64,000 nucleotides of DNA from a phage (GCA_033580375.1 GCA_033580375.1_4527.1); one strand, 5' to 3'; numbered from the stretch's first letter, positions 1,690 through 23,003 are shown. A program made the numbers and translations. Notes: generated from the letters alone by a model not told the origin.

Positions 1690-1757
1690 TGTATTTTTCC
1701 ATAGGCATCATTATATTTTACTCATGTTTAAAAGATAAGATGATTATATACTAATGA

Positions 1758-1766
1758 TTATACAGC
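1758..1766 (-). promoter_or_regulatory. Candidate extended -10 promoter (TGcTGTATAAT, minus sense) upstream of uvsX
   Basis: Minus strand reads ...AAATGCTGTATAATCAT... about 75 nt upstream of the uvsX ATG; no clear -35 seen. Confidence 0.35.
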
Positions 1767-1788
1767 ATTTAAAACTTTAAACAGGCTC

Positions 1789-2337
1789 TTAACGAGCCCA
1801 TTTGATGATTTCTGTAATCAAATCATTACGTTCGCTTGCATTAAATCCTATAACTTTGTTAGCACCATCATGATTAAGTAATTGATACGTTTGGATTTTG
1901 TTATGAATTGCAAACTCTTCAAAATGTGAAATGACTGTATTAAAACTGAGTGAAGACAAAGTAATAAGATCGTCTTCAAAACTTTCAGTCATTTCGTTAC
2001 GTGTTAAAATAATTGTGAACACGTCATGGTTTTGGCAAAGACGAACATAATCCTGCTCATAAACATCAAGAACCGAGTCCGCATCTTGTCGAATACGTCC
2101 ATAAACCCAGTTACTAATATATCCACGGTCTAACAGATAAATCTTAGTAGGGTCTAAATAATTCAACATCGTTTCGAAACAACCAACTTCATTTCGAGAC
2201 TTAACATCGAAACGTCCATCAACTGTTCGTTTAGGGAAATCAATCTTTACATATCTTTCACTAATTTCCATTATGACATTAATGAAAGTTGTTTTGCCGG
2301 CATTATCTGGGCCATCTACTAAAATAATTTTAGCCAT
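1789..2337 (-). CDS. P-loop nucleotide kinase-like protein (thymidylate-kinase-like), 182 aa
   Basis: Walker A GPDNAGKTT near N-terminus and LLDRGYISNWVYG (DRY-type motif of dNMP kinases); ATG at 2335-2337 with GAGGAA SD; occupies the locus where T4 has beta-gt. Confidence 0.6.
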   Translation of the reverse strand: MAKIILVDGPDNAGKTTFINVIMEISERYVKIDFPKRTVDGRFDVKSRNEVGCFETMLNYLDPTKIYLLDRGYISNWVYGRIRQDADSVLDVYEQDYVRLCQNHDVFTIILTRNEMTESFEDDLITLSSLSFNTVISHFEEFAIHNKIQTYQLLNHDGANKVIGFNASERNDLITEIIKWAR

Positions 2338-2338
2338 T

Positions 2339-3235
2339 TTATTCCTCGATTACGACATCTTCGTATTTAGGTATATTATACGGCGAAGAAATTAAAGCAT
2401 TAAAGTAGATGAACTCACCAAGACCTGGATGGAATACTTCTTCAGGATTTTCGAAATATTGAATCTTCGGACGTCCTTTAAGAATTTGATAGTACTCAGT
2501 TTTAGTTGGTTTAAAAATTCGAATCAGCGCTTCTTCAGGATACTTATTTCTGTCGAAGCTATTATTTGGATCGGTTATATAAAGTGGTTGTCCTAATTGA
2601 ATTGCACATTCAACCACTTGTTCAAAATGATAACACGGATCACTAATTCGAAATGGATGAAAAATACCATCTACATGAATAGGAGCCAAATCACCTACAA
2701 GACGCTGCATGATGGAAGGACGTATAACTTTCTGCGTTACGATAATCTTATTATCTGCGCCAGCGTTAACCAGCACTTCTTTTTGACGTTCATTCAACAC
2801 AGTAGTTTGAAGTGAACGATTAACCGACAACATGTCGGTTTTTAAGAATTCGTCAATATAAAAACGTGGTTTATTAGGGTCTGCAGTGATATTGAAATTG
2901 AATTCTACATCAAAAGCGCCGTCATATCCAGTGATATCTGTGATTAGAAAATCACAATCATAATAAGCAATTAATGAATCAACAACAAATTCATTTTCAG
3001 ACCAGAAATATTTACGAGTGTTATACGCGTTATCTTTATACCATAATGGAACAAACTTAAATTCTGGGAAAAGACGTTCACATTCTTTAATATCAGATGC
3101 ATTACGTGGATATGTAATCACATCACCCGGATTAGCACGGTGCAAATGAAGTTGGAAGTTGCCATCCTTAAGGATAGCATACTGTCCAGTTTCATAAGAC
3201 CGCATACTCAAGATTGGTACGCGGAAAATAGCCAT
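2339..3235 (-). CDS. Hypothetical protein, 298 aa (beta-gt locus; candidate DNA sugar transferase, unproven)
   Basis: Long intact ORF, ATG 3233-3235 overlaps gene 42 stop (TAATG); no family recognised by eye. Confidence 0.6.
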   Translation of the reverse strand: MAIFRVPILSMRSYETGQYAILKDGNFQLHLHRANPGDVITYPRNASDIKECERLFPEFKFVPLWYKDNAYNTRKYFWSENEFVVDSLIAYYDCDFLITDITGYDGAFDVEFNFNITADPNKPRFYIDEFLKTDMLSVNRSLQTTVLNERQKEVLVNAGADNKIIVTQKVIRPSIMQRLVGDLAPIHVDGIFHPFRISDPCYHFEQVVECAIQLGQPLYITDPNNSFDRNKYPEEALIRIFKPTKTEYYQILKGRPKIQYFENPEEVFHPGLGEFIYFNALISSPYNIPKYEDVVIEE

Positions 3236-3951
3236 TAGTCAAGGAATCCTTTAACATAATCAAAATCACGTTCAAACACATGGGCACTTACCATGGTATG
3301 AGTATAATCACCAACTTCTACACCGCATTCGTTAGCGATATAATGAAGTAATTTTCCTTGGAGATAAAAATCCAACTGCATAACAACAGCACAGTTCTGA
3401 GAACGCATATGACAGTGGGTATAAAGCTTACCATCACGAATATAATAAGTCACTGAGTCAGTACATGGATATTCAAGTGTTTCATCTGAATCAAGCAAAG
3501 CCTGATCAGAACTTTCTAGAATTTGGAACACAACTCTTCGAGAGTTAGGTTTTTCTTTAAGTTCTTTTAGAAGAGCTGGTAATTGAGCCGCAATGCGAGG
3601 ACCATAGAAAGTGTTGAAGTTTGCAGGCAAAGCATCTGATTTTGGTTTAGAAATAAATTTAGCGACATTAGGATATGCCTTAAACGCTTCTTCTGCATCA
3701 GTACCACCGGAAATCATAAACTTCCAGAAGTCTTCGGCATATTCATAAGATATGCGATTAATACGTGGGTCGGTCATTTTGAATGATGATGGAGTGTCAA
3801 CAACTACTGTCATAGACCCAATTTCATTACAACGTCCAATACGAGAATCAGTTACGAATTCTGGGTTTTCTAAAATTTCACGATTGACTGCTTTAAATGC
3901 GGTTTGAAAATCTGCGGCTTTGATATATTTCATTGTGTTATGTTTTCCCAT
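3235..3951 (-). CDS. 42: dCMP hydroxymethylase (thymidylate synthase family), 238 aa
   Basis: Catalytic-Cys region CTDSVTYYIRDGKLYTHCHMRSQN aligns with the ThyA/dCMP-hydroxymethylase active-site block (T4 gp42-like); ATG 3949-3951 with GAGGT SD; synteny. Confidence 0.8.
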   Translation of the reverse strand: MGKHNTMKYIKAADFQTAFKAVNREILENPEFVTDSRIGRCNEIGSMTVVVDTPSSFKMTDPRINRISYEYAEDFWKFMISGGTDAEEAFKAYPNVAKFISKPKSDALPANFNTFYGPRIAAQLPALLKELKEKPNSRRVVFQILESSDQALLDSDETLEYPCTDSVTYYIRDGKLYTHCHMRSQNCAVVMQLDFYLQGKLLHYIANECGVEVGDYTHTMVSAHVFERDFDYVKGFLD

Positions 3952-4132
3952 GTTTACCTCAATACAATTTATTATATACTCAATTCGTAAAGCTTATTTG
4001 AATTTCTTGGCAATGTTGATATAACGTAAAGCTTCAGCATCGATACTTCCAAGAACACTATGAAGAAATGCATCAGCTTAGTATTCTAATTGAACAGGTT
4101 CTTTAATCACTTTAGCCGCTTTGGTTTCAAAC

Positions 4133-4152
4133 AGGCCCATAAGGGCCTTTTT
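4133..4152. terminator. GC hairpin AGGCCC-ataa-GGGCCT followed by TTTT on the plus side
   Basis: Perfect 6-bp stem read directly; T-run only on the plus strand, so function for the minus-strand operon is uncertain. Confidence 0.35.
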
Positions 4153-4229
4153 AAGAATTTGTTCGTTAGTGTTCAGTTTCATAGTCAAAATCTCTTCATT
4201 AAGTTTATAATTAAAAGCTTTTCTAGAAA

Positions 4230-5390
4230 TCATTCCGGGTACCTCAAAGCGTCATCAGAGTTAGTTATATCAATAATAGATATGGAGTTTTCTGCTAACC
4301 CGTTTTTAGATAATTGACGTTTGTAATATCTTTCACAATATGTACACGTTGACCCACAGATTTCATTAGCACAATCGAAATCCGGATGTCTGAACCACCT
4401 TTTTTCTAAAAAGCCATCTAACAAAGAGGTTTCAATATTTACTGTATGTGAAAACTCAGTCTCATTTTCAAGAGTGAAAATAGTCTCTAAAGGCTTCCAC
4501 AGTTCTAACAAATTACCTTCAAACTTTTCAGAAGCGTATGCTTCAAGAACTTTCAAAATGTAGTCTGTGCTACCTGTACGTCCTGAAACTTTGAATTGAG
4601 TGATACCAATATCATTATAAAGTTTCAAATCTTGAGGACGAACAAAACGAGTTCTCAGCCAGTTAAATGGGTCTGTATCACGAGCTTTAATGCAGTGTTG
4701 CATTGGATATCCATTTAAGGATTTAGCATCATCAGCGGTAACATCAGTACTATGGAAAATATAGCAAGAGTCACGATAACTACAATGTGTTGTATACCCT
4801 TTACCAGCATTAGAACAGAACTCATTTACAAGAACTTCAAATATTATATTGTTCTTATTGCAAAACTCTGCTGCACGCTTCAGGAAAGAAACTGAACGGT
4901 TCTTATGAATTCCACAGCAGACCTTTTTGATATTATATTGGTCATGCAAGTATTTGATTTGAGTTACGGCATCAACATGTAGAATTGTTGAAACTTCAAT
5001 CTCAATATCTTTATTGACTTCACGAACAATTTCCATAACAACAGGGTTAGCGATAGTAATACGCCATACACCTATTGACCAAAGATACTGAACATAATCC
5101 TGAATAGCTTTCTTCTTCCACTCAACTAGTTCTCTTTTTGAACCAGGATTTATCGTGTTGAGTGTATAGTTAAAGCAAATACCTAATTCGTTACAACGTT
5201 TAACATAGTCTTCTAACATTTTTTTGTCAACGTCAGGAAGCCTAAAATCAGGTCTGGCTGCTACAAAAGCCATTTCTCTTGTAGAGCCATATACTTCGTT
5301 TATCAAGCTATTAGGATAAGTTTTATTGAGCTCTACGATTTTATCAAGAAGAGCTAAATCAAAATTCGTTCCGATTTTAAAAGTATTCAT
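4230..5390 (-). CDS. Hypothetical protein, 386 aa; possible TIM-barrel / peptidase-U32-like, Cys-rich C-terminus
   Basis: Intact ORF, ATG 5388-5390; N-terminal pattern EVYGS...ARPDF...CNELGICFNYTLNTIN and Cys cluster NEFCSNAGKGYTTHCSYRDSC weakly resemble U32-family proteins; C-terminal CANEICGSTCTYC; first gene of the inserted block. Confidence 0.55.
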   Translation of the reverse strand: MNTFKIGTNFDLALLDKIVELNKTYPNSLINEVYGSTREMAFVAARPDFRLPDVDKKMLEDYVKRCNELGICFNYTLNTINPGSKRELVEWKKKAIQDYVQYLWSIGVWRITIANPVVMEIVREVNKDIEIEVSTILHVDAVTQIKYLHDQYNIKKVCCGIHKNRSVSFLKRAAEFCNKNNIIFEVLVNEFCSNAGKGYTTHCSYRDSCYIFHSTDVTADDAKSLNGYPMQHCIKARDTDPFNWLRTRFVRPQDLKLYNDIGITQFKVSGRTGSTDYILKVLEAYASEKFEGNLLELWKPLETIFTLENETEFSHTVNIETSLLDGFLEKRWFRHPDFDCANEICGSTCTYCERYYKRQLSKNGLAENSISIIDITNSDDALRYPE

Positions 5391-5448
5391 TTTTTTGCAT
5401 CTCGCGTTAATTGATGCGATGGGTTTTTTGCAGGTCTTACTTAAATTA

Positions 5449-5835
5449 TTATAGATTCGGTTTATACGATTTAAATGTTTCGAATTCGCCTTTATTCATA
5501 AGAGCTTTGAATTCGTCAGGACGCATAGCTTTGTCGTCGATAATCCAATCATATACTGGTTTATGTGTTAGCAAATTATGGTACTTCAAACCAATGTTTT
5601 CCAAGTTCTGAATCAGACTTGGGAGAATGTCAATTGCTATACGACCAGGACCTACTGACTTCATACCACGAGCAGTGTAAAGCGTTATGGTATGCCCTGC
5701 ATCATACAGGGCATTAATGGCGGTCACCATTTCGACGTCTGGTTTGAAGTTCGCGTAATCACGATTGTTATTCCATTCCGTGATGCAATCATCGACATCA
5801 AAACAAAGATTAAGCATGTTTTCTACACGGCGCAT
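5449..5835 (-). CDS. HAD-superfamily phosphatase, about 128 aa
   Basis: HAD motif I LCFDVDDCIT near N-terminus; ATG at 5833-5835 overlaps upstream stop (TAATG); ORF track start 5850 is an alternative. Confidence 0.7.
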   Translation of the reverse strand: MRRVENMLNLCFDVDDCITEWNNNRDYANFKPDVEMVTAINALYDAGHTITLYTARGMKSVGPGRIAIDILPSLIQNLENIGLKYHNLLTHKPVYDWIIDDKAMRPDEFKALMNKGEFETFKSYKPNL

Positions 5836-7520
5836 TAGATTCGTTCCCATTGATGAGTGATATCGCCACCGATTGGACGATAGGAAACACCAGTTTCTTT
5901 ATCAGTTAGTACCCATTTACCAGGATTTTTTGTAATCAGAGTAGCCGTTACAGGTTCTGCTACGTCATAACTAATAGAGCCGTCTTGAAGTACACGACCC
6001 ATGTTACGTAATTGCTTAGTCAGAAGTTCCATACCTTTATAATATGCGGCTACCGCTTTAAGTGGATTATTCTTGAAATAACCACCTAATGCAATCCAGA
6101 TAATCGCCACTGCCAAATGATGATACTCGTTAAACGAACTCATCTTTCCATATTTGTAAACTAATGGATTGATGTTAATAGTCACATTACAAGTTGTTTC
6201 GTCAATAGTAAACTGTCCCCAGGTCGGATTAGCATTGAATTCATCATAACCTGAAACAGCATAAAGCACTTTAGCTTCATCGTACAATTTTGGCCCGTAA
6301 ATCTTGGTTTCACCAAAATATCCACGAGGGTCGATAAACTTGACTTCGCCGTTATCAGTAATCATAGTATTACTGAAGTTCGGGTCACCGTGAATAACAG
6401 AGTACTGTCCCTGAGAACGGTTATGATAACGAATAAGGTGTTCTAAAGCTTGTTTCAACATTGGCTTCAGACGTCCAATCTTAGTGTAGTTCACATGTGT
6501 GATTTTACCAAATGAATCAATCAATGGTTGAATGCTTTCACAACGATCAATAACTTTCGTATAGAATTCTTTAGTGAAATCACGACGAACAGTTTCAGGA
6601 CTTACAAAATAAATGTCTGTGCTGAATTTCAGTGCATCTAAAATTGCATCAACAATTTGTGGACGAGCAAGACTTGATTTGGATTTAATATATTCAAATG
6701 CTGGCTTACCTTTAATGCGTTCCATTTCAAAGTTATTTTCATTAACAGAAACTAACTGAGGAACTGAATCTGATTTTACTTTCAAATACCATGAAATCTC
6801 ATCTTTTTGAAGAGCTCGTCCCTGTTCTGTTAATGCGAATTTAGTTACAGTTTCTTCACCAATTTCAACTGCATTAAAACTACGATTAAGTTCACGAACT
6901 TCATGAGCCTTTTCAAGTTTAGGCATATCACCTAAATCAATTAGATTCATAAGCTCTGATTTATTGAATGCACTGCCGTAAAGGAATTCTACAAAATCAC
7001 GTCCTTTACAGTATTCGTGAATTTCCTCGTCAGTAGAACCCATGTAGAATTCCCAGTCTTTGAACTGATAAATTCCTACAACATTACCGCCTGTTGAACC
7101 TACGTTAGTGATATTTTCACCATCGAAATTATATCGACATTCATCACCCTTAACATAGATTGCGTTAACATTCCAAGACCATGAACCAAAATCTGGAATA
7201 ATATCACACCAGTTAACAACTACGTTATGGCCGTCTAAATCTTTATGTAATTTAGCAAGAGCATAAGCAGAACCATACGCTTCATCAACTGTACGAATAG
7301 TCACATTGAACCCTTCTTGCTCACAATAAGCTCGAACAGTTTCAGCAAATTTTGAATGAACTACTACAATAATTTCATCTGCACCAAGGTCAGAATAAAT
7401 TGTATACAAATTGCTCAGAATAGTGTCTTGTTTATAGTTCACAAGAACTTTTGGAATATGGTGAGTAATTGGATATAAACGAGTTGCCAGTCCAGCACCA
7501 AGAATAACAGCTTTTTTCAT
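5835..7520 (-). CDS. Bifunctional sugar-1-phosphate nucleotidyltransferase (N-term) / APH-like sugar kinase (C-term), 561 aa
   Basis: N-terminus MKKAVILGAGLATRLYPIT...PKVLV is a classic NDP-sugar pyrophosphorylase signature; C-terminal HGDPNFSNTMITDNGEVKFIDPRGYFG is an HxDxxxxN catalytic loop plus D-x-G of APH/choline-kinase-like kinases; ATG 7518-7520 with GAGGA SD. Confidence 0.8.
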   Translation of the reverse strand: MKKAVILGAGLATRLYPITHHIPKVLVNYKQDTILSNLYTIYSDLGADEIIVVVHSKFAETVRAYCEQEGFNVTIRTVDEAYGSAYALAKLHKDLDGHNVVVNWCDIIPDFGSWSWNVNAIYVKGDECRYNFDGENITNVGSTGGNVVGIYQFKDWEFYMGSTDEEIHEYCKGRDFVEFLYGSAFNKSELMNLIDLGDMPKLEKAHEVRELNRSFNAVEIGEETVTKFALTEQGRALQKDEISWYLKVKSDSVPQLVSVNENNFEMERIKGKPAFEYIKSKSSLARPQIVDAILDALKFSTDIYFVSPETVRRDFTKEFYTKVIDRCESIQPLIDSFGKITHVNYTKIGRLKPMLKQALEHLIRYHNRSQGQYSVIHGDPNFSNTMITDNGEVKFIDPRGYFGETKIYGPKLYDEAKVLYAVSGYDEFNANPTWGQFTIDETTCNVTININPLVYKYGKMSSFNEYHHLAVAIIWIALGGYFKNNPLKAVAAYYKGMELLTKQLRNMGRVLQDGSISYDVAEPVTATLITKNPGKWVLTDKETGVSYRPIGGDITHQWERI

Positions 7521-7548
7521 GTTGAAGTCCTCATTGGTAAGTAGGAGT

Positions 7549-7573
7549 ATTGTACACTATTCTAGTTAAAGCA
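7549..7573 (-). promoter_or_regulatory. Candidate MotA-dependent middle promoter (TGCTTTA box, 12 bp, TACAAT) upstream of the NTase/kinase gene
   Basis: Minus strand reads aTGCTTTAactagaatagtgTACAATactcc...; MotA-box consensus and spacing from established T4 knowledge. Confidence 0.4.
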
Positions 7574-7705
7574 TTCATACTTTGCTTGTAGTCCAATCAT
7601 AATCCATCCAATTACAAGTGTTGGAATCATTACTGGAGCCGTTAAGCTCCAGTAGATAGTCATGACAAGCATCAATAGTAAAAGTCCTATTGTTATTGCT
7701 TTCAT
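7562..7705 (-). CDS. Small membrane protein, 47 aa (not in ORF track)
   Basis: Hand translation MKAITIGLLLLMLVMTIYWSLTAPVMIPTLVIGWIMIGLQAKYECFN; ATG overlaps upstream stop as ATGA (translational coupling); single predicted TM helix. Confidence 0.45.
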   Translation of the reverse strand: MKAITIGLLLLMLVMTIYWSLTAPVMIPTLVIGWIMIGLQAKYECFN

Positions 7706-8337
7706 TGCTCGCCTCGTAACATGGCACCTAGAGCACCGCCAGGGTGGAACTTAAGGAAATCATTAGAGGTAAATCCACGTTCAGACGAAAGGTTGATAGC
7801 AAACGTATCGATAAGCGCTAACAACAATGTAGTGGACATGGTCGGAGCTAAAGAGTTCTCGTCAACTTCTACCGCGATACCGGTACAGAACGTATAATCA
7901 AAAAGAGCTTCGTATTCTTGCGGAATGTCAGGGTTACAATGTAACAGAATCTGTTTAACCTGAGGACGAATCATACGAAGATGTTTAGCAACACCTATCA
8001 TTTCTTCAGTCTTACCAGAACGACTGATGTGAACTAATACATCATTAGGTGCAATAAATCCTGCGTCGCCATGAGAATAATGCCCAGTGTTCAAATACAT
8101 GCTAGGAATACCGAGTGAAGCAAATGTCTCAGAAGCTTTAGTTGCAATATTAGCATTCTTACCAACACCTGTAATAATTACACGACTTTCATAATTACTC
8201 AGTCCAGGGCGTCGAAGAGTTTCAAGAATAGCATTATAACGAGCAGGGTTTTGACTAATTACTTTGGCCATAGCGGCCAAAGAAGAAGCTTGTTTTATGA
8301 TTGCGTCAATAGCGATAGTAATAGGAGTAGTTTTCAT
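7702..8337 (-). CDS. SIS-domain sugar-phosphate isomerase, arabinose-5-phosphate isomerase (KdsD/KpsF)-like, 211 aa
   Basis: GVGKNANIATKASETFASLGIPSMYL...HGDAGFIAPNDVLVHISRSGKTEE and FLKFHPGGALG closely resemble the KdsD/GutQ SIS domain; no CBS pair; ATG 8335-8337. Confidence 0.8.
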   Translation of the reverse strand: MKTTPITIAIDAIIKQASSLAAMAKVISQNPARYNAILETLRRPGLSNYESRVIITGVGKNANIATKASETFASLGIPSMYLNTGHYSHGDAGFIAPNDVLVHISRSGKTEEMIGVAKHLRMIRPQVKQILLHCNPDIPQEYEALFDYTFCTGIAVEVDENSLAPTMSTTLLLALIDTFAINLSSERGFTSNDFLKFHPGGALGAMLRGEQ

Positions 8338-8377
8338 ATTTCTCTCATTTAATTAGTTTACCGTCCTTGGCATTATA

Positions 8378-11089
8378 TCAAAAATCGAACATATCGAATA
8401 GAGATGCTTTCTTCTCGTAATCGAGTTTCGCTGCTGATGTGAATCCTTCAAGTGGTTTAATAAATGTCTTCTCAAGGAGAACAGTGTAGTCCATCCAATG
8501 AAGTACATCATCTTTGATTAAATCAGTGATTTCAGTACCAGAAGGCCATGCGATACATTTATCACCGAACGGGTTTCCTTCACGTAAAGGCAGAACATAT
8601 ACTTTTTCACCTTCTACAACTTGTGGTGCATCGATATTACCTTTGATAGCCCGGTTATACGTCAGAATTCCACGAATATGGAACGGACATTTAGGACCAG
8701 GGAATCCACCTACATCATATTTAGCAATGTTATTCGCAGAAGATACCGACGCGATGCTAATATAATTCAATTGACGGAATTCTTTTTCAAACTCTTTAAA
8801 ATATTCTTGTAATGATTCTTCACCTTCTTGAAGCATACGACGAATACATTCTTTAAGAGCTTTCTGTACCGCTTTAGGAGTTGAAGATTTCTGTGTTTCG
8901 AGACCCATGATTTTGAGTTTAGGCTCAGCGTAACGAGTACCTTCCATATCCCACACGTTTAATGCATAACGTTTCTTACCAGTCCAGAATCCGCCAATAC
9001 CTTTAGAACCGAGCGGAGGACCAGCGATAGCTTCTCGGTCCATGAACATTAAGTGTTGTTTATTGTTCATGTATTCACACATTTCACGGAAACCTCTATC
9101 AATAGCCGGTTCCATACGTTCACGAGCGAACTTATCTAAGAAGTCTACCCAATGGTTGGTATCACGGAATTTAGATTCACCAACCTTATCAATAATTTTA
9201 TCTGCAGATACATAAATGGAGTCTGTATCACCATAAAGAACGAAAGCTTCACCTTCTGTACCACAAACTTCGTTCAGATATTCATTAACTTTACGTTCAA
9301 TCCACTGTAAAGCCATTTGCCCGAATGTTGTGATTGCAGTAGCATTACGCAAATCGTAATAACGGAACCAAACGTTTCCAAGTGCACCATAAAGCGAGTT
9401 GATGAGTAATTTACGGTTAATCTGTGCAGTCATACCTGCAACTTCAGTACGTTGAGCTCTAAACAACATTTCATTAAGAGATTTAGCAGACAACTTTTTA
9501 ATCTTTTCTTTAATCTCGTCAGTGAAGTCGAAACGATAATCAACATCTAATGGTTCATCAACAGAAAGATTAGGATTATGCAATGCCTCTTTAATTATTT
9601 CACCATTACGTTGAGCTGCAAGCATGTAACCTTTATGTTCTTTACGCTGATTAAAGACCTTAGTGATTTCGGTTGGAACTACACCATCACGGTCTTTATA
9701 ATACATCATGCCATTAGGAGAGCAACTGTACACATCTGAAGGACGTTCAGCAACAGCGTTAATATAATCATGCAATGGAGCTACTTTAAACGTTCCTGCT
9801 ATTGTTTCTGGGCTAATATTCACTTGGCGAATAATACTTGGATACAGAGATGTAAGGTCGAAACTCATTACATATTTGTATCGATTTGGAATAGGTTCCT
9901 TAACAAAAGCGCCAGGATAAGGTTGAACCGGGTGAGAACGACCTTGTGGAATCACCTTGTTCTGCTCTTTAAGGCTATTAAAAATAATAGCATCCCATGT
10001 TTTAATTGGGCTAAACACAGATTGAATCTGTATCTTAGCATAATAACCCATGTCCAAACTCAAGTTGATGAACTGACGCTTAGCATCAATTTGCAATACA
10101 CGATACACGTCGATAATGTTATAAGAAATATATCGTTGGTGATTGCTTTCACGAAGCTTAGAAATAGGGCCTTCATATTTCAGTTTACCAACGTTCAATT
10201 CAAATTCTGAAATGTAATCCAGAGAATACGACGGTTGATTGGTAAAAGAGAATTTTTTGTAAAGGTCAATGTAATCAAGAACAGAGATACCGAACAATGT
10301 AATGATTTCACGAGAACCATACATGTTTTCGATAACTTTAACACGAGTTTTACGATGTGGTGATAAACGTTTCGCAGTAGATTCGCCAAAAATATTCTTG
10401 ATTCGGTTATACACATATGGAATATCAAATGACTCAACGTTCCATCCAGTCAAAATGACAGGAGTTTTCTGTTGCCAGAAGTTGAGATATTCCATCAACA
10501 ATTCTTTTTCGTTATCGAACGGCATATAAATGATTTTATCAATAATTTCGGATGGAACTTCATCACCACCTTGTTCTTGAAGCTTAGCCGCAATTTCGAT
10601 AGACCATTCTTCCACATTACCATATGGAGAATTCAATAGATCAAATACGTAGAACCTGTCGTCAATTGAGTCATAATGGGTGATAGCATCAATCGGATGT
10701 TTTGCTTGTGACGGCTCAGGGAACCCATCCGGAGATGTTACTTCGATGTCGAAGTTAGCCACACGAATTTTTGTATGGTCGTATTTGATTTCATAGTTAT
10801 AAGTGTCAGACAAATACGCTAATTTGAAATCGTCCATGCCAAGTGCTTCAAGTCCGATATCTTCCATGCGTTTAATCCATTGGGAGGCATCACGCATATT
10901 AGCGAACAACTTACGAGTACATGGCTTACCGTAGATATCGAAATATTTCGTAGCCTGACTTTCTGGACAATGAGCAAACAGTGATGGTTTATATTCTACT
11001 TCACGAGTACGTTCACGGCCGTTAGAATCGATGTAACGTTCAAAAATTGAATCACCGATCTGTTCAACCGTTAAGTAAAATTCTTTCAT
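8378..11089 (-). CDS. 43: DNA polymerase (family B), 903 aa
   Basis: MKEFYLTVEQIGDSIFERYIDSNGRERTREVEYKPSLFAHCPESQ... matches my recollection of RB69 gp43; exonuclease (FDIE) and polymerase (YGDTDS) motifs present. Confidence 0.98.
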   Translation of the reverse strand: MKEFYLTVEQIGDSIFERYIDSNGRERTREVEYKPSLFAHCPESQATKYFDIYGKPCTRKLFANMRDASQWIKRMEDIGLEALGMDDFKLAYLSDTYNYEIKYDHTKIRVANFDIEVTSPDGFPEPSQAKHPIDAITHYDSIDDRFYVFDLLNSPYGNVEEWSIEIAAKLQEQGGDEVPSEIIDKIIYMPFDNEKELLMEYLNFWQQKTPVILTGWNVESFDIPYVYNRIKNIFGESTAKRLSPHRKTRVKVIENMYGSREIITLFGISVLDYIDLYKKFSFTNQPSYSLDYISEFELNVGKLKYEGPISKLRESNHQRYISYNIIDVYRVLQIDAKRQFINLSLDMGYYAKIQIQSVFSPIKTWDAIIFNSLKEQNKVIPQGRSHPVQPYPGAFVKEPIPNRYKYVMSFDLTSLYPSIIRQVNISPETIAGTFKVAPLHDYINAVAERPSDVYSCSPNGMMYYKDRDGVVPTEITKVFNQRKEHKGYMLAAQRNGEIIKEALHNPNLSVDEPLDVDYRFDFTDEIKEKIKKLSAKSLNEMLFRAQRTEVAGMTAQINRKLLINSLYGALGNVWFRYYDLRNATAITTFGQMALQWIERKVNEYLNEVCGTEGEAFVLYGDTDSIYVSADKIIDKVGESKFRDTNHWVDFLDKFARERMEPAIDRGFREMCEYMNNKQHLMFMDREAIAGPPLGSKGIGGFWTGKKRYALNVWDMEGTRYAEPKLKIMGLETQKSSTPKAVQKALKECIRRMLQEGEESLQEYFKEFEKEFRQLNYISIASVSSANNIAKYDVGGFPGPKCPFHIRGILTYNRAIKGNIDAPQVVEGEKVYVLPLREGNPFGDKCIAWPSGTEITDLIKDDVLHWMDYTVLLEKTFIKPLEGFTSAAKLDYEKKASLFDMFDF

Positions 11090-11148
11090 TTAATTTCCTT
11101 TAGACGAGTTATTGTCTTTTGTTTGTTGATGAACTTATTATACTCCAA

Positions 11149-11166
11149 ATGGGACCGAAGTCCCAT
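11149..11166 (-). promoter_or_regulatory. Stable hairpin (GGGAC-UUCG-GUCCC on mRNA) in regA-43 intergenic region; candidate gp43 translational operator element or regA terminator
   Basis: Perfect 7-bp stem with UUCG tetraloop read from sequence; T4 gp43 autoregulates via an operator hairpin (established), but this hairpin is about 60 nt upstream of the ATG so the assignment is tentative. Confidence 0.3.
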
Positions 11167-11170
11167 TGCT

Positions 11171-11539
11171 TTAATTACCAATTGTATATTTTGCTTTCAA
11201 AGTCCAGTCATCTTTCTGTTTAAAAGAGATAACACGGAAGTTATTAGTCAGGCTAAATAGATCTTCACGAGCAGAGTCTTCAATAACAATTAATCCCCAG
11301 TCTTCAAGCAACTGAGCAATCGAATCACGTCGCTGATAGTCTTCACCATCAATATCAACCTGACGTCCGTCCATACGCAGCATTTCTTTAAAGTGGACGA
11401 TGTAATATTTACCTTGCTTTTGGAGGATATGACAGGACTGATAAAGGATTTTATCCTTGTTATTAGCGATGCCCATACGGGTCAAAGTCTCTTTGACTTT
11501 CAGAAAATCTTCAGGGTTCTTCAATTTAATTTCAATCAT
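11171..11539 (-). CDS. regA: RegA translational repressor, 122 aa
   Basis: MIEIKLKNPEDFLKVKETLTRMGIANNKDKILYQSCHILQK... resembles T4 RegA; start taken at MIEI (ORF track start 11548 adds 3 codons); synteny 62-regA-43. Confidence 0.85.
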   Translation of the reverse strand: MIEIKLKNPEDFLKVKETLTRMGIANNKDKILYQSCHILQKQGKYYIVHFKEMLRMDGRQVDIDGEDYQRRDSIAQLLEDWGLIVIEDSAREDLFSLTNNFRVISFKQKDDWTLKAKYTIGN

Positions 11540-11541
11540 TT

Positions 11542-12105
11542 TTACCATTCCAATGCTAATTTTTTAAATTGTTTTTGTTCTTTTACGTTTTTAGTAACTT
11601 CTTTGAGAAATTCATCAGTGACCATGGCCTTCAGTTCTTTAAGGACTATTGGCAGCTTGTTATTTTTTTCAAGGAGCCGCTTATACTCGGTAGCATCATT
11701 CATGTTGATTGTGTAATGTTTCATCAACAGTTTGATAACTAGTAACTCTGAAGTGTCTTCGACTAGTTTAGCCCATTTAGAGAATCGACGACCACGCGGA
11801 ATTGCCGCCATCATATAGTTGAAGTGCGCTTCATCACTTAATTCAGAACCGACTAAGTTCATCATGTAAACGGCTGGCATACATTCTGGGAACTGGGATA
11901 ATGAGTTCTCAATCATAAATTTTGAGTAGTCGACCTGAGCAATTGACATAGATTTCTTTTCATTAATGGCATTAATGATTTTAAAGAATTCATTCTCAGG
12001 TTTTTCTTTAAACATATCAGCACATTTTTGAATCGCATCAGCGTCATTAGACTTCCATGCAATTTGGTGCTCGTTAAGCTGGACGTCATCATCGAATAAG
12101 TTCAT
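11542..12105 (-). CDS. 62: Clamp-loader subunit gp62, 187 aa
   Basis: Sequence and length match T4 gp62 as recalled (...[20 protein letters not shown]); synteny. Confidence 0.9.
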
Positions 12106-12106
12106 A

Positions 12107-13069
12107 TTATTTCCAAGTCAGTTCACAGGTCAGTTGAAGAAGCATATACATAACATGTAATTCAATATTACTTGCTAGTCCATGAAACTTATTATTTTCG
12201 CCTGCAATTTCGTAAAGCGAAATAATACTTTTACCAGGTGCAACTTGGTCATAACATTCTGAAACTAATTTATCGATGAACCACGAATAATCTGCAGCAT
12301 ATTTTGGAGCTAATGCACGAAGCTGTTTGATATCTTTGTTCTTCATTGCTTCGATAACATCAGAGACTGTTCCACGGTCATTAGTTACGATAGACAGAAT
12401 ACCTGCATCAAGAACACCTTTAGACGAGTACTGGTCTAATTGGCCGATTGTGCGACGAAAGTCTGGGAAGTTCTTTTTAACCAGAGCTGCAACAACTTTC
12501 ATATCAGCGATTTCGATATTTTCATTCTTACAGATTTCAACCATACGATGAATCATTTTCTTCATCATCGAGATTTTATCTTCTTCGGTCGGACGACCGA
12601 ATTCGATAACTCGACAACGGCTACGTAATGGTTCAATAATTCCATCGATGTTGTTAGCAGTAATAATAATAGAACAGTTACTAGAGAATTCTTCCATGAA
12701 TGTACGAAGGTGACGTTGTGATTCGGCGAGGCCACTACGGTCAAATTCATCAATAACAATAACTTTAGGCTTGCCTTCCATTGAGACTGAACGAGCGAAT
12801 GCAGTTAACGGACCACGCACAAAATCAATTTTACAATCAGAACCGTTGACGAACATCATTTCGGCATTGATATCATTACATAATGCTTTTGCTACGGTTG
12901 TTTTACCTGTACCAGGAGATGGAGAGTGTAAAATAATATGAGGAAGTTTTCCTTTAGATACTAAAGACTTGAATGTTTCATGGTCATACGCAGGCAGAAT
13001 ACATTCGTCAATGGAAGAAGGACGATATTTCTGTTCTAGAATGTGTTCTTTGGAATTGATAGTAATCAT
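12107..13069 (-). CDS. 44: Clamp-loader ATPase gp44, 320 aa
   Basis: Walker [11 protein letters not shown], Walker [12 protein letters not shown] motif (LRSRC); synteny. Confidence 0.92.
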
Positions 13070-13095
13070 GTAATTTTCCTCATTATCATTAAACT

Positions 13096-13111
13096 GGAGG
13101 ATTTCTCCTCC
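13096..13111 (-). promoter_or_regulatory. Hairpin GGAGGA-gaaa-UCCUCC in the 45-44 intercistronic region
   Basis: Perfect 6-bp stem about 25 nt upstream of gene 44 ATG; possible attenuator or translational control element. Confidence 0.3.
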
Positions 13112-13144
13112 ATAATCGTACTACATTAAACGTAAAGCTTTAAC

Positions 13145-13831
13145 TTAGAAGTCGTGGGTAGAATCGGCTTCCATCGCAATAACATAACTTACTTGAGAGC
13201 TTTCAAACTTAGCTGCAACTTTATCACCAGCTCCCCACAACATTACTTTATAGTTACCTGGCTGGATTTTCATATTAGCCATATTGATTACGAAGTTAAA
13301 GTTATTAGAACCATCATAATCGGTAAGAGTCAAAGAATACTTAGGACGAGTTAGTCCAGAATCTTCAACTTTATTATAACCGTTGATAACAATTTTACCA
13401 TCTTTATTTGTAATAGCAATTGTATCAATCTGAAGACCACGTGAAACTCGAAGCAATTGTTGAAGGTCTTCAGCTTTAATTTCAGTAATCACCGAAGCCA
13501 CTGGGAATTGAATTGGCTTATTAGGAAAAACAATGGTGCTCTTGTCGGCAGCAGGCCAATAAACTGTGGAACGTGTATCTGCAATTTTAATATTGCCATC
13601 GGTGTGCATTGAAATTTCAGCATCATCAGACACTAGACTCAAAATGCTTAAGAAGCTATTCAAATCATAAAGTGCTACGTCAAAATCAATTTCATCAGAG
13701 ATATTTGCTTCCGCATAAGTGGTGCCATTAACTGCACGGGTCATAATAAATTTACCTTGACTCAGCAGAATGCCGGAGTTAATAGAGGCAAAGTTTTTCA
13801 GAATAGCGATAGTATCTTTAGACAGTTTCAT
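13145..13831 (-). CDS. 45: Sliding clamp gp45, 228 aa
   Basis: MKLSKDTIAILKNFASINSGI... matches T4 gp45 as recalled; ORF track start 13846 adds 5 codons. Confidence 0.9.
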   Translation of the reverse strand: MKLSKDTIAILKNFASINSGILLSQGKFIMTRAVNGTTYAEANISDEIDFDVALYDLNSFLSILSLVSDDAEISMHTDGNIKIADTRSTVYWPAADKSTIVFPNKPIQFPVASVITEIKAEDLQQLLRVSRGLQIDTIAITNKDGKIVINGYNKVEDSGLTRPKYSLTLTDYDGSNNFNFVINMANMKIQPGNYKVMLWGAGDKVAAKFESSQVSYVIAMEADSTHDF

Positions 13832-13873
13832 TTTATTTCCTTTCAAGACAATTCAAAGTTTAAAAAAAATTTA

Positions 13874-14290
13874 TTATGCAGCAACCATCTGCTTTTTAAT
13901 AGCTTCAGGCAGTGATTCAATATATTCTGGAATTTTAGAAGCAACAATTTCGCCGGCTGCAATTAATTGTTCGTCGGCATCAACACAGTAGAAATCTTCC
14001 AGACGCTCAGAACCATCTTTATCAAGAACGATTTTTCCACCAGCTTCAATAGAATCTTTATAGTGCTTACGCATCAGATGAATCCACATATCAGATACAT
14101 CGTTGTCGATAAAACCATAAATCATAAAACGAGTTTCTTGTGGCAAAGATTGAAGCTTTTTAGCACTTGCGTCATCACAATGCAGGACCCATGCTTTACG
14201 AACACGATTATGGTTATGTGGGTTAGCGTCAGTACGGATAGAAGTAACTTTCAGATCAGCAGCAGTAAAACCTTTAGCAGTAGTAAACAT
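13874..14290 (-). CDS. rpbA: RpbA-like RNA polymerase-binding protein, 138 aa
   Basis: Position between 45 and 46 as T4 rpbA; size similar; no sequence recall. Confidence 0.5.
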   Translation of the reverse strand: MFTTAKGFTAADLKVTSIRTDANPHNHNRVRKAWVLHCDDASAKKLQSLPQETRFMIYGFIDNDVSDMWIHLMRKHYKDSIEAGGKIVLDKDGSERLEDFYCVDADEQLIAAGEIVASKIPEYIESLPEAIKKQMVAA

Positions 14291-14302
14291 ATTATTTCTC
14301 TC

Positions 14303-14503
14303 TTATTCGTAGAAGTCGGTAACTGTCCATGCGGAATTGCGATTAGACATTATTTTATTATACTCATCTTTAAAAGCAGATTTGAGCATTTGTTCAGTAA
14401 CAATATGTTCTTCACCTGAAAACGTATTGGTCAAAACATATTTTTTAATTTCAGGGACAACAAGAAGATGTTGTCCGGTTGAATACTCCATGTTGTTCTC
14501 CAT
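14303..14503 (-). CDS. Hypothetical protein, 66 aa (45.2 position)
   Basis: ORF in operon context. Confidence 0.5.
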   Translation of the reverse strand: MENNMEYSTGQHLLVVPEIKKYVLTNTFSGEEHIVTEQMLKSAFKDEYNKIMSNRNSAWTVTDFYE

Positions 14504-14545
14504 TTAATTTGATGTGGTCATTATAACCACATCGTGTTAAAGCGT

Positions 14546-22532: not shown

Positions 22533-23003
22533 TTAATCATGTTTCCACACCCCATCGGTATTTGACCAAAGTCGCTGATTATCTGATCCTCGCCATAGCT
22601 TTTTGGTCGGAAGATTTTTCTCATACTTCCCATCAATAATAACATCAACATATTTAAGCATTTCTAGCTGTTTAATATCTTCAAACTTATATCCTGTCCA
22701 CAACCAAATGCTTTTATTGGGATAAAGATTTTTAATAGTTTGAACCACAGAATGAATAACATCTCGGTTGTCAGGATAGAGAGGGTCTCCTCCAGATATA
22801 GTTAATCCTTCTATATAATCATTATTCAAACATTCAATTAATTGTTCTAGTGTCTCTCCGGTGAATGGAGCACCATTTCTAGCGTTCCATGTTGATTTAT
22901 TATAACACCCTTCACATTTATGCAAACACCCTGTAACGAAAAGAACGACCCTACAACCAGGGCCATTAACAAAATCGCAAGGATAAAATCTATCATAATT
23001 CAT
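22533..23003 (-). CDS. nrdG: Anaerobic ribonucleotide reductase activating enzyme NrdG (radical SAM), 156 aa
   Basis: CxxxCxxC cluster (GCLHKCEGC); ATGA overlap with nrdD stop. Confidence 0.9.
   Translation of the reverse strand: MNYDRFYPCDFVNGPGCRVVLFVTGCLHKCEGCYNKSTWNARNGAPFTGETLEQLIECLNNDYIEGLTISGGDPLYPDNRDVIHSVVQTIKNLYPNKSIWLWTGYKFEDIKQLEMLKYVDVIIDGKYEKNLPTKKLWRGSDNQRLWSNTDGVWKHD

Follow-up and report, generated by a model that had tools for sequence, protein, structure and literature searches.

We found that positions 1789–8337 of the analyzed DNA, a 64,000-nucleotide window from an RB69-like Mosigvirus, very likely carry the full set of genes, known from earlier work, for arabinosyl-5-hydroxycytosine DNA, judging from homology to characterized proteins. 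Inside this cluster, the minus-strand gene at 4230–5390 encodes a Peptidase_U32-family, probably Fe-S, protein; slightly on balance, we infer that it hydroxylates pyrimidine C5 in a prephenate-dependent and O2-independent manner, by analogy with characterized U32 factors. The two parts taken together, core pathway plus U32 role, give the best explanation of the locus and a likely one.

Five ORFs occupy 4230–8337 between a TS homolog and the gene for DNA polymerase gp43 (8378–11089, minus strand; Pfam DNA_pol_B and exonuclease domains); a preliminary description of this DNA had placed five co-oriented ORFs there, and all are present on the minus strand. The nearest systems are the RB69 gp45–gp55, HY126 Afh, Bas46–47, and DLP3 gp76–83 clusters. 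The order of the API, AfhE-type fusion, HAD phosphatase, U32, TS-type synthase, glycosyltransferase (GT), and kinase genes is the same as in RB69, and protein identity across gp45–55 is 96–100%. The dS of approximately 0.1–0.4 relative to RB69 marks the window as a different Mosigvirus isolate. Unlike in the RB69 reference record, where sequencing errors split the fusion and GT genes, both are unbroken in the window, whereas its ORF049c homolog carries a nonsense codon. In phage T4, the interval between genes 42 and 43 contains imm and imm.1, not imm only as previously stated, and the block is missing from this glucosyl-hmC phage. The reported lack of alpha-gt and beta-gt homologs was borne out across the whole 64-kb window, in which tblastn found no homolog of T4 alpha-gt, beta-gt (E ≤ 0.01 for the glucosyltransferases), or imm; gp55, a-gt.2, and uvsX were found in the same window. 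The T4 system resembles the present one in its slot between gene 43 and uvsX and in its logic, namely a TS-fold enzyme that makes a modified dCMP, followed by incorporation and glycosylation on DNA. However, T4 has no donor-pathway genes, because host UDP-glucose is used, and neither a U32 gene nor a related GT.

The gene at 7702–8337 (minus strand; 211 aa, 98% amino acid identity to RB69 gp55) is predicted to encode a D-arabinose-5-phosphate isomerase (API), which interconverts ribulose-5-phosphate and arabinose-5-phosphate (Ara5P). An earlier SIS, KdsD/GutQ-like call held in Pfam (SIS, 9.6e-10), NCBIfam (KpsF/GutQ, 8.9e-32; KdsD, 3.9e-30), and PDB profile searches (3etn, 9.6e-25; 5uqi; 2xhz). 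Although the catalytic SIS domain is strongly similar to KdsD/GutQ, the match is confined to it (residues 48–207 against KdsD model positions 47–202 of 328) and the two CBS domains are missing; the protein is therefore of the short SIS-only isomerase form, as are 3etn and 5uqi. API genes are optional in the ara family, being missing from the JS98, PhiKpNIH-6, and Thanatos loci. The AfhE-type bifunctional fusion (5835–7520, minus strand; 561 aa, 99% identical to RB69 gp52:53) had been described as a nucleotidyltransferase joined to a kinase. Profiles support the N-terminal half (Pfam NTP_transferase, 8e-10, with sugar-1-phosphate nucleotidyltransferase profile matches also in NCBIfam and PDB), and the kinase half is supported by invariant HGDxxxxN and DPRG motifs together with weak Pfam matches (Fructosamin_kin, 0.0035; EcKL, 0.009). 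The AfhF-type small HAD phosphatase (5449–5835, minus strand; RB69 gp51) was also recognized correctly, as TIGR01689 (1.5e-13), PDB 1xpj (9.6e-11) and 9iqw (~97% identity), and a DVDD motif agree. Its ORF extends over 5449–5850 (133 aa), and the start at 5835 corresponds to Met6, in agreement with RB69 gp51 and PDB 9iqw. The remaining small ORF (7562–7705, minus strand; 47 aa, RB69 ORF054c, phrog_3610) does encode a peptide with hydrophobic residues throughout, consistent with the membrane peptide proposed earlier. Its membership in the module is doubtful: tblastn detected it in JS98 and in the T4 42–imm spacer, so that it is not pathway-specific, and the ara loci from Acinetobacter, Klebsiella, and Thanatos gave no match. 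It is probably a conserved T4-like small ORF outside the pathway.

The TS-fold protein (3235–3951, minus strand) had been taken for dCMP hydroxymethylase (42) but is instead a 5-hydroxy-dCMP (5hodCMP) synthase of the TS family, with 100% amino acid identity to RB69 gp48 and 25% to T4 gp42. In E. coli ThyA numbering, the alignment showed the L143E, D169N, N177D signature and loss of the folate-site residues (E58F and W80A); E58, W80, and D169 of T4-type hydroxymethylases are thus F, A, and N here, whereas T4 gp42 keeps its folate-site residues. The protein shares 235 of 238 residues with PDB 9iqc/9ir2, and the window TS and HAD proteins are ~97–99% identical to 9iqc and 9iqw, respectively. RB69 gp48 was experimentally shown to make 5hodCMP with O2 and flavin, and 18O2 labeling indicated that the oxygen atom comes from O2 (PMC13326640). 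While this enzyme type needs the oxygen of O2, the phage carries NrdG and NrdD for anaerobic growth (22533–24817, minus strand; Pfam NRDD, 3.7e-171, Gly_radical, Fer4_12/Radical_SAM), an anaerobic ribonucleotide reductase that should equip it for anaerobic infection. Downstream lie a predicted DNA arabinosyltransferase 1, assigned from the literature (2339–3235, minus strand; 298 aa, RB69 gp46:47, 98% identical to the gp47 part), and a thymidylate-kinase-like nucleotide kinase (1789–2337, minus strand; 98% identical to RB69 gp45, phrog_761). All ara-type loci compared have the arabinosyltransferase gene and also the kinase gene, whose conservation goes along with that of the GT and hydroxylase genes.

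In the resulting core pathway, the SIS isomerase would divert host ribulose-5-phosphate to Ara5P, the C-terminal kinase of the fusion would put a 1-phosphate on Ara5P, the HAD phosphatase would strip the 5-phosphate from arabinose-1,5-bisphosphate (Ara-1,5-P2) to leave Ara1P, and the N-terminal nucleotidyltransferase would convert Ara1P and UTP to UDP-arabinofuranose (UDP-Araf), with the fusion and phosphatase activities taken from the literature. The TS-fold enzyme would make 5-hydroxy-dCMP with flavin and O2, the kinase would pass this nucleotide into replication, and the GT would arabinosylate the 5-OH in DNA. These core steps were published for RB69, HY126, and DLP3 and are transferred here on 96–100% protein identity. 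For HY126, the in vitro order of He et al. 2026, as relayed in PMC13326640, is Ara5P to Ara-1,5-P2 to Ara1P to UDP-Araf, with the AfhE kinase acting first, the AfhF phosphatase second, and the AfhE N-terminal domain last. Mono- or di-arabinosyl-5-hydroxycytosine in virion DNA was published for RB69, Bas46/47, HY126, and NP.

The preliminary description had the block supply NDP-arabinose for arabinosyl-hmC through free arabinose, beside a true dCMP hydroxymethylase, and presented this assignment as its own inference. Its outline stood in that the genes would provide activated arabinose for a non-glucose modification, starting from ribulose-5-phosphate through API, and in that T4 lacks the block. 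As a whole, the earlier scheme is very improbable, even though it invokes the same enzymes with the same domains, Thomas et al. 2018 reported ara-hmC, and Table 1 of Lee 2026 keeps the older step labels. The relayed HY126 work on AfhE and AfhF runs through the bisphosphate rather than free arabinose (PMC13326640), the hmC assignment has been called erroneous (PMC13390438), and the TS homolog, with D169N and without E58 and W80, is identical to a 5hodCMP maker (PMC13326640), which makes 5-hydroxycytosine the modified base. Arabinosyl-hmC via free arabinose is thus contradicted by published NMR, MS, and enzymology. The donor pathway at this locus is not new either: it was proposed in section 3.4 of Thomas et al. 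2018 (PMC6024577), was already assigned to the locus in the 2021 Bas47 GenBank annotation, and was worked out in 2025–26, further publications being Mahler 2025, He 2026, and Lee 2026.

The 386-aa protein at 4230–5390 (RB69 gp50) had been described as Cys-rich and of no assigned family. The first part is correct, with ten Cys invariant or nearly so across 121 homologs, whereas Pfam places the protein in Peptidase_U32 (PF01136; 7.3e-11, 42.2 bits against a cut-off of 22.4). The top PDB fold match of its AF2 model (pLDDT 93.2) was the U32 protein 5d88 (TMt 0.70). Residues E185, C203, and C209 align to E162, C170, and C177 of TrhP and to E161, C169, and C176 of RlhA, in which the Glu and two Cys of the U32 motif are published as essential; among the homologs, C203 and C209 never vary, and E185 is at least 90% conserved. 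With a dN/dS of 0.027 and the lowest dN of the cluster, U32 is the cluster's most conserved protein. Characterized relatives target ho5C2501 in 23S rRNA (RlhA), ho5U34 in tRNA (TrhP), and anaerobic ubiquinone (UbiU/UbiV). Genetic work has shown that hydroxylations that depend on prephenate but not on O2, among them that of cytidine C5 in rRNA, require RlhA, TrhP, or UbiU/V (PMC5727448, PMC6599085, PMC10990095). The phage protein shares with them the U32 domain, the TIM-barrel fold, the essential Glu and two Cys, many conserved Cys suited to Fe-S, and genomic linkage to prephenate synthesis, and pyrimidine C5 is a plausible target. Conversely, sequence similarity is weak (18.5 bits against the UbiU model, cut-off 440), and the presumed substrate is a deoxynucleotide instead of RNA or a quinone. 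The phage motif is C-x5-C rather than C-x6-C, without the CX3C pair of the C-x6-C-x15-C-x3/4-C arrangement or the UbiU/UbiV variants, and an invariant C-terminal C-x4-C-x3-C-x2-C motif is added. Without this CX3C pair, which provides ligands in the canonical motif, it is uncertain which residues would serve as ligands three and four of a cluster; C192, C233, C158, C177, and the C-terminal C340/C345/C349/C352 cluster are candidates.

We also examined the genomic linkage of U32. In T4-like phages, U32 has neighboring chorismate mutase (CM) genes that score above the Pfam threshold (54 GenBank records and 13 of 15 IMG/VR T4-like loci); in two other phage lineages, its neighbor is a DAHP-synthase–CM fusion or a monofunctional CM. 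Chorismate mutase makes prephenate. In the window, the slot held by CM in related phages is filled by the truncated RB69 ORF049c homolog (4078–4233, minus strand, located by DNA alignment), which has 51 instead of 79 aa (phrog_8601 positions 1–51 of 79) owing to a TAC-to-TAA nonsense change at 4078–4080 and was not recognizable as a CM (hhalign against phage CMs, probability 0.15%). Among 32 divergent viral U32 loci, an AraT1-like GT occurred in 23, a kinase in 20, an AfhE-like gene in 16, and an API-like gene in 9. A TS homolog occurred in only one of the 32, a canonical ThyA, within a coverage of ±10 kb or 59% of one contig, so that a 5hoC-type TS could lie elsewhere. A total of 222 phage records contained U32, and the matches listed were all from Enterobacterales or Shewanella phages. 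It was not found in phages of Acinetobacter, a strict aerobe, of which two clusters were examined and 57 records carry AfhE. The Acinetobacter phages DLP3, AM101, and Acj9 have the donor pathway without U32, as does JS98. The correlation of U32 with host oxygen rests on few independent lineages. Acinetobacter T4-like phages have lost the anaerobic RNR activase in the same pattern (PMC4177764).

Based on these results, we propose that, in the absence of O2, U32 would yield the same 5-hydroxypyrimidine nucleotide as the TS-type enzyme, its product being the 5-hydroxy base decorated by DNA glycosyltransferases. In enterobacterial T4-like phages, this route would coexist with the O2/flavin-dependent TS-type synthase, so that an aerobic and an anaerobic route would exist side by side, as with TrhO/TrhP and UbiIHF/UbiUV in E. 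coli. In many metagenomic phages with kinase–GT–U32 or GT–API–AfhE–(DAHPS–CM)–U32 modules, U32 may be the sole hydroxylase. The chances are about even that the phage protein and its ~360-aa relatives in many uncultured phages constitute a hitherto unassigned U32 subfamily hydroxylating C5 of a pyrimidine deoxynucleotide with prephenate. Several observations argue against the hydroxylase role: U32 members are known to act on RNA polymers and on a quinone precursor, not on mononucleotides or DNA; the CX3C pair is missing; E. coli Dhakaviruses such as JS98 keep the ara cluster without U32; and Mosigviruses, including this window, have no recognizable CM, with the slot ORF here interrupted. In the searchable literature, with key subscription papers lying outside it, we found no publication linking phage U32 to this role. 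Metagenomic kinase–GT–[hydroxylase] modules, close to which a UDP-galactopyranose mutase is encoded, resemble the glycosyl-5-hydroxycytosine genes of Rhizobium phage RL38J1 (kinase 214, GT 215, 5hodCMP synthase 216, UDP-Galp mutase 084), except that U32 stands where RL38J1 has a TS-fold enzyme.

A part for U32 in sugar metabolism, such as tailoring the pentose, is suggested by its position inside the donor-pathway block, by adjoining AfhE-like and API-like genes in many metagenomic loci, and by the labels "sugar or heterocycle reductase" (Lee 2026, Table 1) and "enzyme involved in UDP-arabinose biosynthesis" (Bas47 annotation). We consider it unlikely: U32 is probably outside the donor pathway, because DLP3 makes the same ara-5hoC modification without it, AM101, Acj9, and JS98 likewise combine the donor pathway with no U32, and at least six kinase–GT–U32 modules carry no sugar-nucleotide genes. 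In addition, we know of no U32 member acting on sugars, and the CM linkage would be left unexplained. A TrhP/RlhA-like hydroxylation of RNA (tRNA ho5U34 or rRNA ho5C), with U32 as an auxiliary translation gene, would fit the fact that characterized nucleic-acid U32 members act on RNA and that T4-like phages encode tRNAs. Such a role appears quite improbable, since the phage protein is far shorter than RlhA (653 aa), lacking its DUF3656 region and also the C-terminal extension of TrhP, and since its genes always lie in DNA-nucleotide or GT modules, beside dCMP deaminase, dUTPase, thymidylate-kinase-like genes, and DNA GTs, and in cultured phages were seen only where an ara-type cluster was also present. 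The Pfam and PHROG names would make U32 a true peptidase or collagenase, which is hardly credible: the family name is historical, characterized members are Fe-S hydroxylation factors, and both the genomic setting and the groups of invariant Cys would suit a protein that carries out redox chemistry on nucleotides.

The donor pathway adds nothing new here, and its practical use is better annotation, as the genes are widely mislabeled in public records. The labels found there include "phosphoheptose isomerase", "GlmU", "dCMP hydroxymethylase", "peptidase", and "RNA polymerase binding protein". The remaining value of the locus is the U32 gene. If the proposed hydroxylase role is true, U32 enzymology would gain a small soluble substrate, which could open a long-standing question to direct tests because in vitro reconstitution has been achieved for no U32 hydroxylase (PMC10990095). 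It would also explain how gut phages maintain full hypermodification of their DNA without O2, the oxygen source of the known 5hodCMP synthase, and would widen the range of hydroxypyrimidine-glycosyl DNA modification to include many uncultured phages that are not T4-like.

We investigated the five open reading frames (ORFs) that the preliminary description had placed between 4230 and 8337, and all of them were found there on the minus strand, flanked by the DNA polymerase gene (8378–11089) and a thymidylate synthase (TS)-family gene (3235–3951). The isomerase (7702–8337, 211 aa) matched the SIS family in Pfam (9.6e-10), the KpsF/GutQ (8.9e-32) and KdsD (3.9e-30) models of NCBIfam, and PDB entries 3etn, 5uqi, and 2xhz. 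In the nucleotidyltransferase–kinase fusion (5835–7520, 561 aa), the N-terminal part gave a Pfam hit of 8e-10 and profile matches to many sugar-1-phosphate nucleotidyltransferases. The ORF of the HAD-type phosphatase (5449–5850, 133 aa) contains a DVDD motif and matched TIGR01689 (1.5e-13) and PDB 1xpj; a start at 5835 (Met6) agrees with RB69 gp51 and PDB 9iqw. The SIS, HAD, and NTP-transferase calls were thus borne out, and the kinase in the C-terminal half of the fusion was the weakest domain call by sequence: Pfam hits were weak (Fructosamin_kin, 0.0035; EcKL, 0.009) and the PDB profile search matched the N-terminal nucleotidyltransferase only, but HGDxxxxN and DPRG motifs, which serve catalysis and metal binding in enzymes of the APH/choline-kinase type, were invariant in an alignment of eight homologues. 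With these assignments supported, the reading of the block as a sugar-nucleotide pathway survives. The fifth protein (4230–5390, 386 aa), described as a Cys-rich unknown, turned out to be a Peptidase_U32 protein (42.2 bits against a Pfam cut-off of 22.4).

The 47-aa membrane peptide (7562–7705, minus strand) is hydrophobic over its full length. Because tblastn matched it in JS98 and in the 42–imm spacer of T4 (57% identical, near position 5731 of the T4 locus L015), it probably does not belong to the sugar pathway; it seems instead to encode a small membrane protein conserved among T-even-like phages. The T4 counterpart carries no annotation in T4. Between genes 43 and 42, T4 has imm, as had been stated, but also imm.1, followed by beta-gt. 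T4 was the one glucosyl-hmC phage examined and lacks the block, again leaving the reading intact. Homologues of alpha-gt and beta-gt, which had not been recognized at their usual loci, were found nowhere in the 64-kb window, nor was imm; gp55, a-gt.2, and uvsX were present. A promoter and terminator scan of 1700–8500 found sites no more commonly than in shuffled sequence.

The donor pathway was assigned to this locus as an inference, but it has been in the literature from 2018 on. Thomas et al. (2018) detected arabinose in the DNA of RB69 and suggested that ORF055c and ORF53_52c, in the same polymerase–uvsX module, supply its UDP-arabinose (PMC6024577), and the Bas47 GenBank record (2021) labels the isomerase, the fusion, and the U32 gene "involved in UDP-arabinose biosynthesis". 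Lee et al. (2026) identified mono- and poly-arabinosylated 5-hydroxycytosine in RB69 and DLP3 DNA by MS and NMR, with the sugar joined to C5 directly via an ether oxygen, and reported that RB69 gp48 forms 5-hydroxy-dCMP, binds flavin, and takes up 18O from 18O2 (PMC13326640). The modified base is therefore not hmC, as had been assumed: the TS homologue of the window is identical to gp48, and the earlier hmC assignment has explicitly been called erroneous (PMC13390438). The proposed order through free arabinose also fails, since the route in phage HY126, as He et al. (2026) are cited in PMC13326640, runs from Ru5P to Ara5P (isomerase), Ara-1,5-bisphosphate (kinase domain of AfhE, the fusion), Ara1P (AfhF, the phosphatase), and UDP-arabinofuranose (nucleotidyltransferase domain of AfhE). 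In short, the finding is real in outline but already known, and three points need correcting: which base is modified, the order of the intermediates, and what the fifth protein is.

The region shares approximately 97.5% DNA identity with more than 150 Mosigvirus genomes, and its cluster proteins are 96–100% identical to RB69 gp45–gp55; because dS is about 0.1–0.4, the window is distinct from RB69 itself. The TS homologue has 100% protein identity to RB69 gp48 and 25% to T4 gp42. Relative to E. coli ThyA it carries L143E, D169N, and N177D, and E58 and W80 are lost (replaced by F and A, respectively), a pattern common to 7 of 7 ara-type phages examined, whereas T4 gp42 retains E58, W80, and D169. 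It matches PDB 9iqc/9ir2 at 235 of 238 residues, and the phosphatase is approximately 97% identical to PDB 9iqw; these are probably the HY126 structures. Such near-identity is what carries the donor pathway and the O2- and flavin-dependent route to 5-hydroxy-dCMP, both shown in the literature, over to this phage, where they would operate likewise. The fusion gene and the 298-aa glycosyltransferase (GT) gene are unbroken in the window and split in the RB69 reference record, which Thomas et al. (PMC6024577) and Lee et al. (PMC13326640) put down to sequencing errors. Misleading labels are widespread in public records. The phosphatase goes under three of them ("phosphoheptose isomerase", "polynucleotide kinase", and "capsule biosynthesis protein") and the U32 protein under two ("peptidase" and "collagenase"), while "GlmU" stands for the fusion, "dCMP hydroxymethylase" for the 5-hydroxy-dCMP synthase, and "RNA polymerase binding protein" for the GT. 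The isomerase is kept in Acinetobacter phages and absent from the ara clusters of JS98 (L013), PhiKpNIH-6 (L014), and Thanatos-2 (L016), which therefore presumably depend on host KdsD/GutQ; JS98 retains imm between polymerase and cluster.

The U32 protein is strongly conserved, with a dN/dS of 0.027 against RB69 and, against Serratia phage LC53, the lowest dN of the cluster (0.125; TS 0.182, AfhE 0.220, GT 0.348). Its AlphaFold model (pLDDT 93.2, pTM 0.91) best matched PDB 5d88 (TMt 0.70), to our knowledge the only solved U32 protein, and the remaining matches in the PDB fold search were generic TIM barrels. Among 121 homologues (48–100% identity), ten Cys residues were invariant or nearly so (C158, C177, C192, C203, C209, C233, C340, C345, C349, and C352). 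When aligned with E. coli UbiU, UbiV, TrhP, and RlhA, E185/C203/C209 correspond to E162/C170/C177 of TrhP and E161/C169/C176 of RlhA, which were shown to be essential, and the last C-terminal CxxC aligns with C611/C614 of RlhA, of which C611 is essential. No canonical CX3C pair was found in this alignment, and the remaining cluster ligands are therefore uncertain. Residues 340–352 form an invariant C-x4-C-x3-C-x2-C motif (CANEICGSTCTYC), which holds a CX3CX-aromatic-C pattern resembling the radical-SAM cluster motif.

RlhA, TrhP, and UbiU/V need prephenate and function without O2; in the case of UbiU/V, prephenate donates the oxygen (PMC10990095, PMC5727448, PMC6599085). Directly downstream of U32, we found chorismate mutase (CM) genes above the Pfam threshold in three T4-like phages that are not Mosigviruses, Serratia phage LC53 (44.6 bits; L001, 7158–7502), Klebsiella phage PhiKpNIH-6 (39.5 bits; L014, 15832–16077), and Shewanella phage Thanatos-2 (32.8 bits; L016, 8134–8391), in the slot corresponding to 3952–4233 of the window. 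This CM occurred in 54 phage records in GenBank (tblastn) and, among the matches listed, lay beside a U32 or TS gene in genera that also had U32 matches; it was present in 13 of 15 T4-like U32 loci of IMG/VR. In a second, non-T4-like lineage of uncultured phages, a DAHP-synthase–CM fusion with both domains above threshold lies upstream of U32 (L048, 8399–9430; L051, 7290–8354; L052, 8323–9384). L018, also from an uncultured phage, has a stand-alone DAHP_synth_1-family protein next to U32 (7145–7891). A phage gene that covers both shikimate-pathway entry and the making of prephenate would seem to be an auxiliary metabolic gene of an unusual kind. A third lineage, on 190–294 kb contigs, has a monofunctional CM after U32 (L054, L057, and relatives). 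Mosigviruses are the exception, with an unrelated 79-aa ORF (RB69 ORF049c) in the CM slot. In the window, its homologue (4078–4233) is cut to 51 aa by an in-frame TAC-to-TAA change at 4078–4080; the identical 61-mer around this codon was in no phage record (best match 98.4%, wherever in the 61-mer the mismatch lies). We rejected ORF049c and the 51-aa ORF as a diverged CM (no Pfam match; BLASTP E = 0.16; hhalign probability 0.15%). Host PheA or TyrA would have to be the source of any prephenate in this phage.

By tblastn, the U32 gene was detected in 222 records of cultured phages, in each case with at least 80% identity; their hosts, among the matches listed, were all Enterobacterales or Shewanella. 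The AfhE-type gene was in 374 records, 57 of them from Acinetobacter phages. The Acinetobacter clusters examined (AM101 and Acj9) contained isomerase, AfhE, HAD, TS, GT, and kinase genes, and neither U32 nor CM was found in them; nrdG, for the anaerobic ribonucleotide reductase activase, is also missing from T4-related Acinetobacter phages (PMC4177764), and phage ribonucleotide reductase class generally tracks the oxygen requirement of the host (PMC3653736). The window encodes NrdG and NrdD (22533–24817, approximately 14 kb from the cluster), which shows that this phage is equipped for anaerobic infection although the known 5-hydroxy-dCMP synthase needs O2. An exception to the host pattern is the E. 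coli Dhakavirus JS98, with an ara cluster and no U32.

The nearest relatives of U32 beyond the T4-like phages (48–58% identity) reside in phage replication and nucleotide modules with dCMP deaminase, dUTPase, thymidylate-kinase-like, UDG, and Pol III alpha genes. In L019, L020, and L021, the start of U32 is overlapped by an ORF homologous to the arabinosyltransferase of the window (BLASTP, 1e-8 to 1e-13). In L018, genes for a GT homologue (7e-17), for SIS and AfhE-like proteins (the latter 29% identical over 522 aa), and for U32 precede the DAHP_synth_1-family gene. Family HMMs applied to 32 divergent IMG/VR loci (±10 kb) detected an AraT1-like GT in 23, a kinase in 20, AfhE-like in 16, CM in 10, API-like (isomerase) in 9, and HAD and TS in 1 each, the sole TS being a canonical ThyA with D169 and N177. 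Six viral contigs of approximately 41–49 kb (L040, L044, L045, L050, L053, and L066) carry a minimal kinase–GT–U32 triad of overlapping genes without sugar-nucleotide genes. These resemble the kinase–GT–5-hydroxy-dCMP synthase arrangement of Rhizobium phage RL38J1 (Lee et al.), with U32 in the position of the hydroxylase. On one 44-kb triad contig, no TS homologue was found even at E ≤ 1 in 59% of the contig, and a weak CM candidate lacked Pfam support. This contig encodes a TAGT-like GT (weak match) and a UDP-galactopyranose mutase; the pair is present in at least two of the related loci, L019 and L070 (8442–9554 and 12747–13661 in the latter), which suggests a galactofuranosyl-hydroxypyrimidine DNA modification in such phages with no TS-type hydroxylase nearby. 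Separately, L004/L005 (ENA and Logan contigs) look bacterial, with dockerin GH43 and Glu-Cys ligase, and contain an island (around 5135–15428) encoding GP88, a methyltransferase, U32, an NT5C deoxyribonucleotidase, a PnuC-like transporter, a dNK deoxynucleoside kinase, a radical-SAM/SPASM protein, a second U32-like protein, and a nucleoside-deoxyribosyltransferase-like protein.

From sequence comparison, we predict, at slightly better than even odds, that the U32 protein is an Fe-S enzyme that hydroxylates a pyrimidine deoxynucleotide at C5, dependent on prephenate and independent of O2. Its substrate would likely be a mononucleotide, because nucleotide kinase, dCMP deaminase, and dUTPase genes are constantly associated with it. 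Against this role count the non-canonical Cys motif, JS98 without the gene, and metagenomic genomes seen in part; moreover, no U32 enzyme has so far been reconstituted in vitro (PMC10990095). In Lee et al., RB69 gp50, the U32 protein, has a table entry reading "sugar or heterocycle reductase" and no mention in the text, and their discussion cites both U32-dependent RNA pyrimidine hydroxylation pathways (PMC13326640). A part in sugar tailoring is unlikely, since DLP3-type phages carry the same modification without U32 and the minimal triads have U32 without sugar genes. We consider it improbable that the protein hydroxylates RNA with no relation to DNA, and highly improbable that it is a true peptidase. 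No paper in the literature searched, a set without Mahler et al. (2025) and He et al. (2026), linked U32 to phage hydroxycytosine.

If the U32 protein is the predicted hydroxylase, the TS-type enzyme would supply 5-hydroxy-dCMP in air and the U32 protein would supply it when O2 is unavailable, dual routes of the same kind as E. coli TrhO/TrhP and UbiIHF/UbiUV. The donor pathway is already published, and the remaining interest of this locus lies in its U32 gene.
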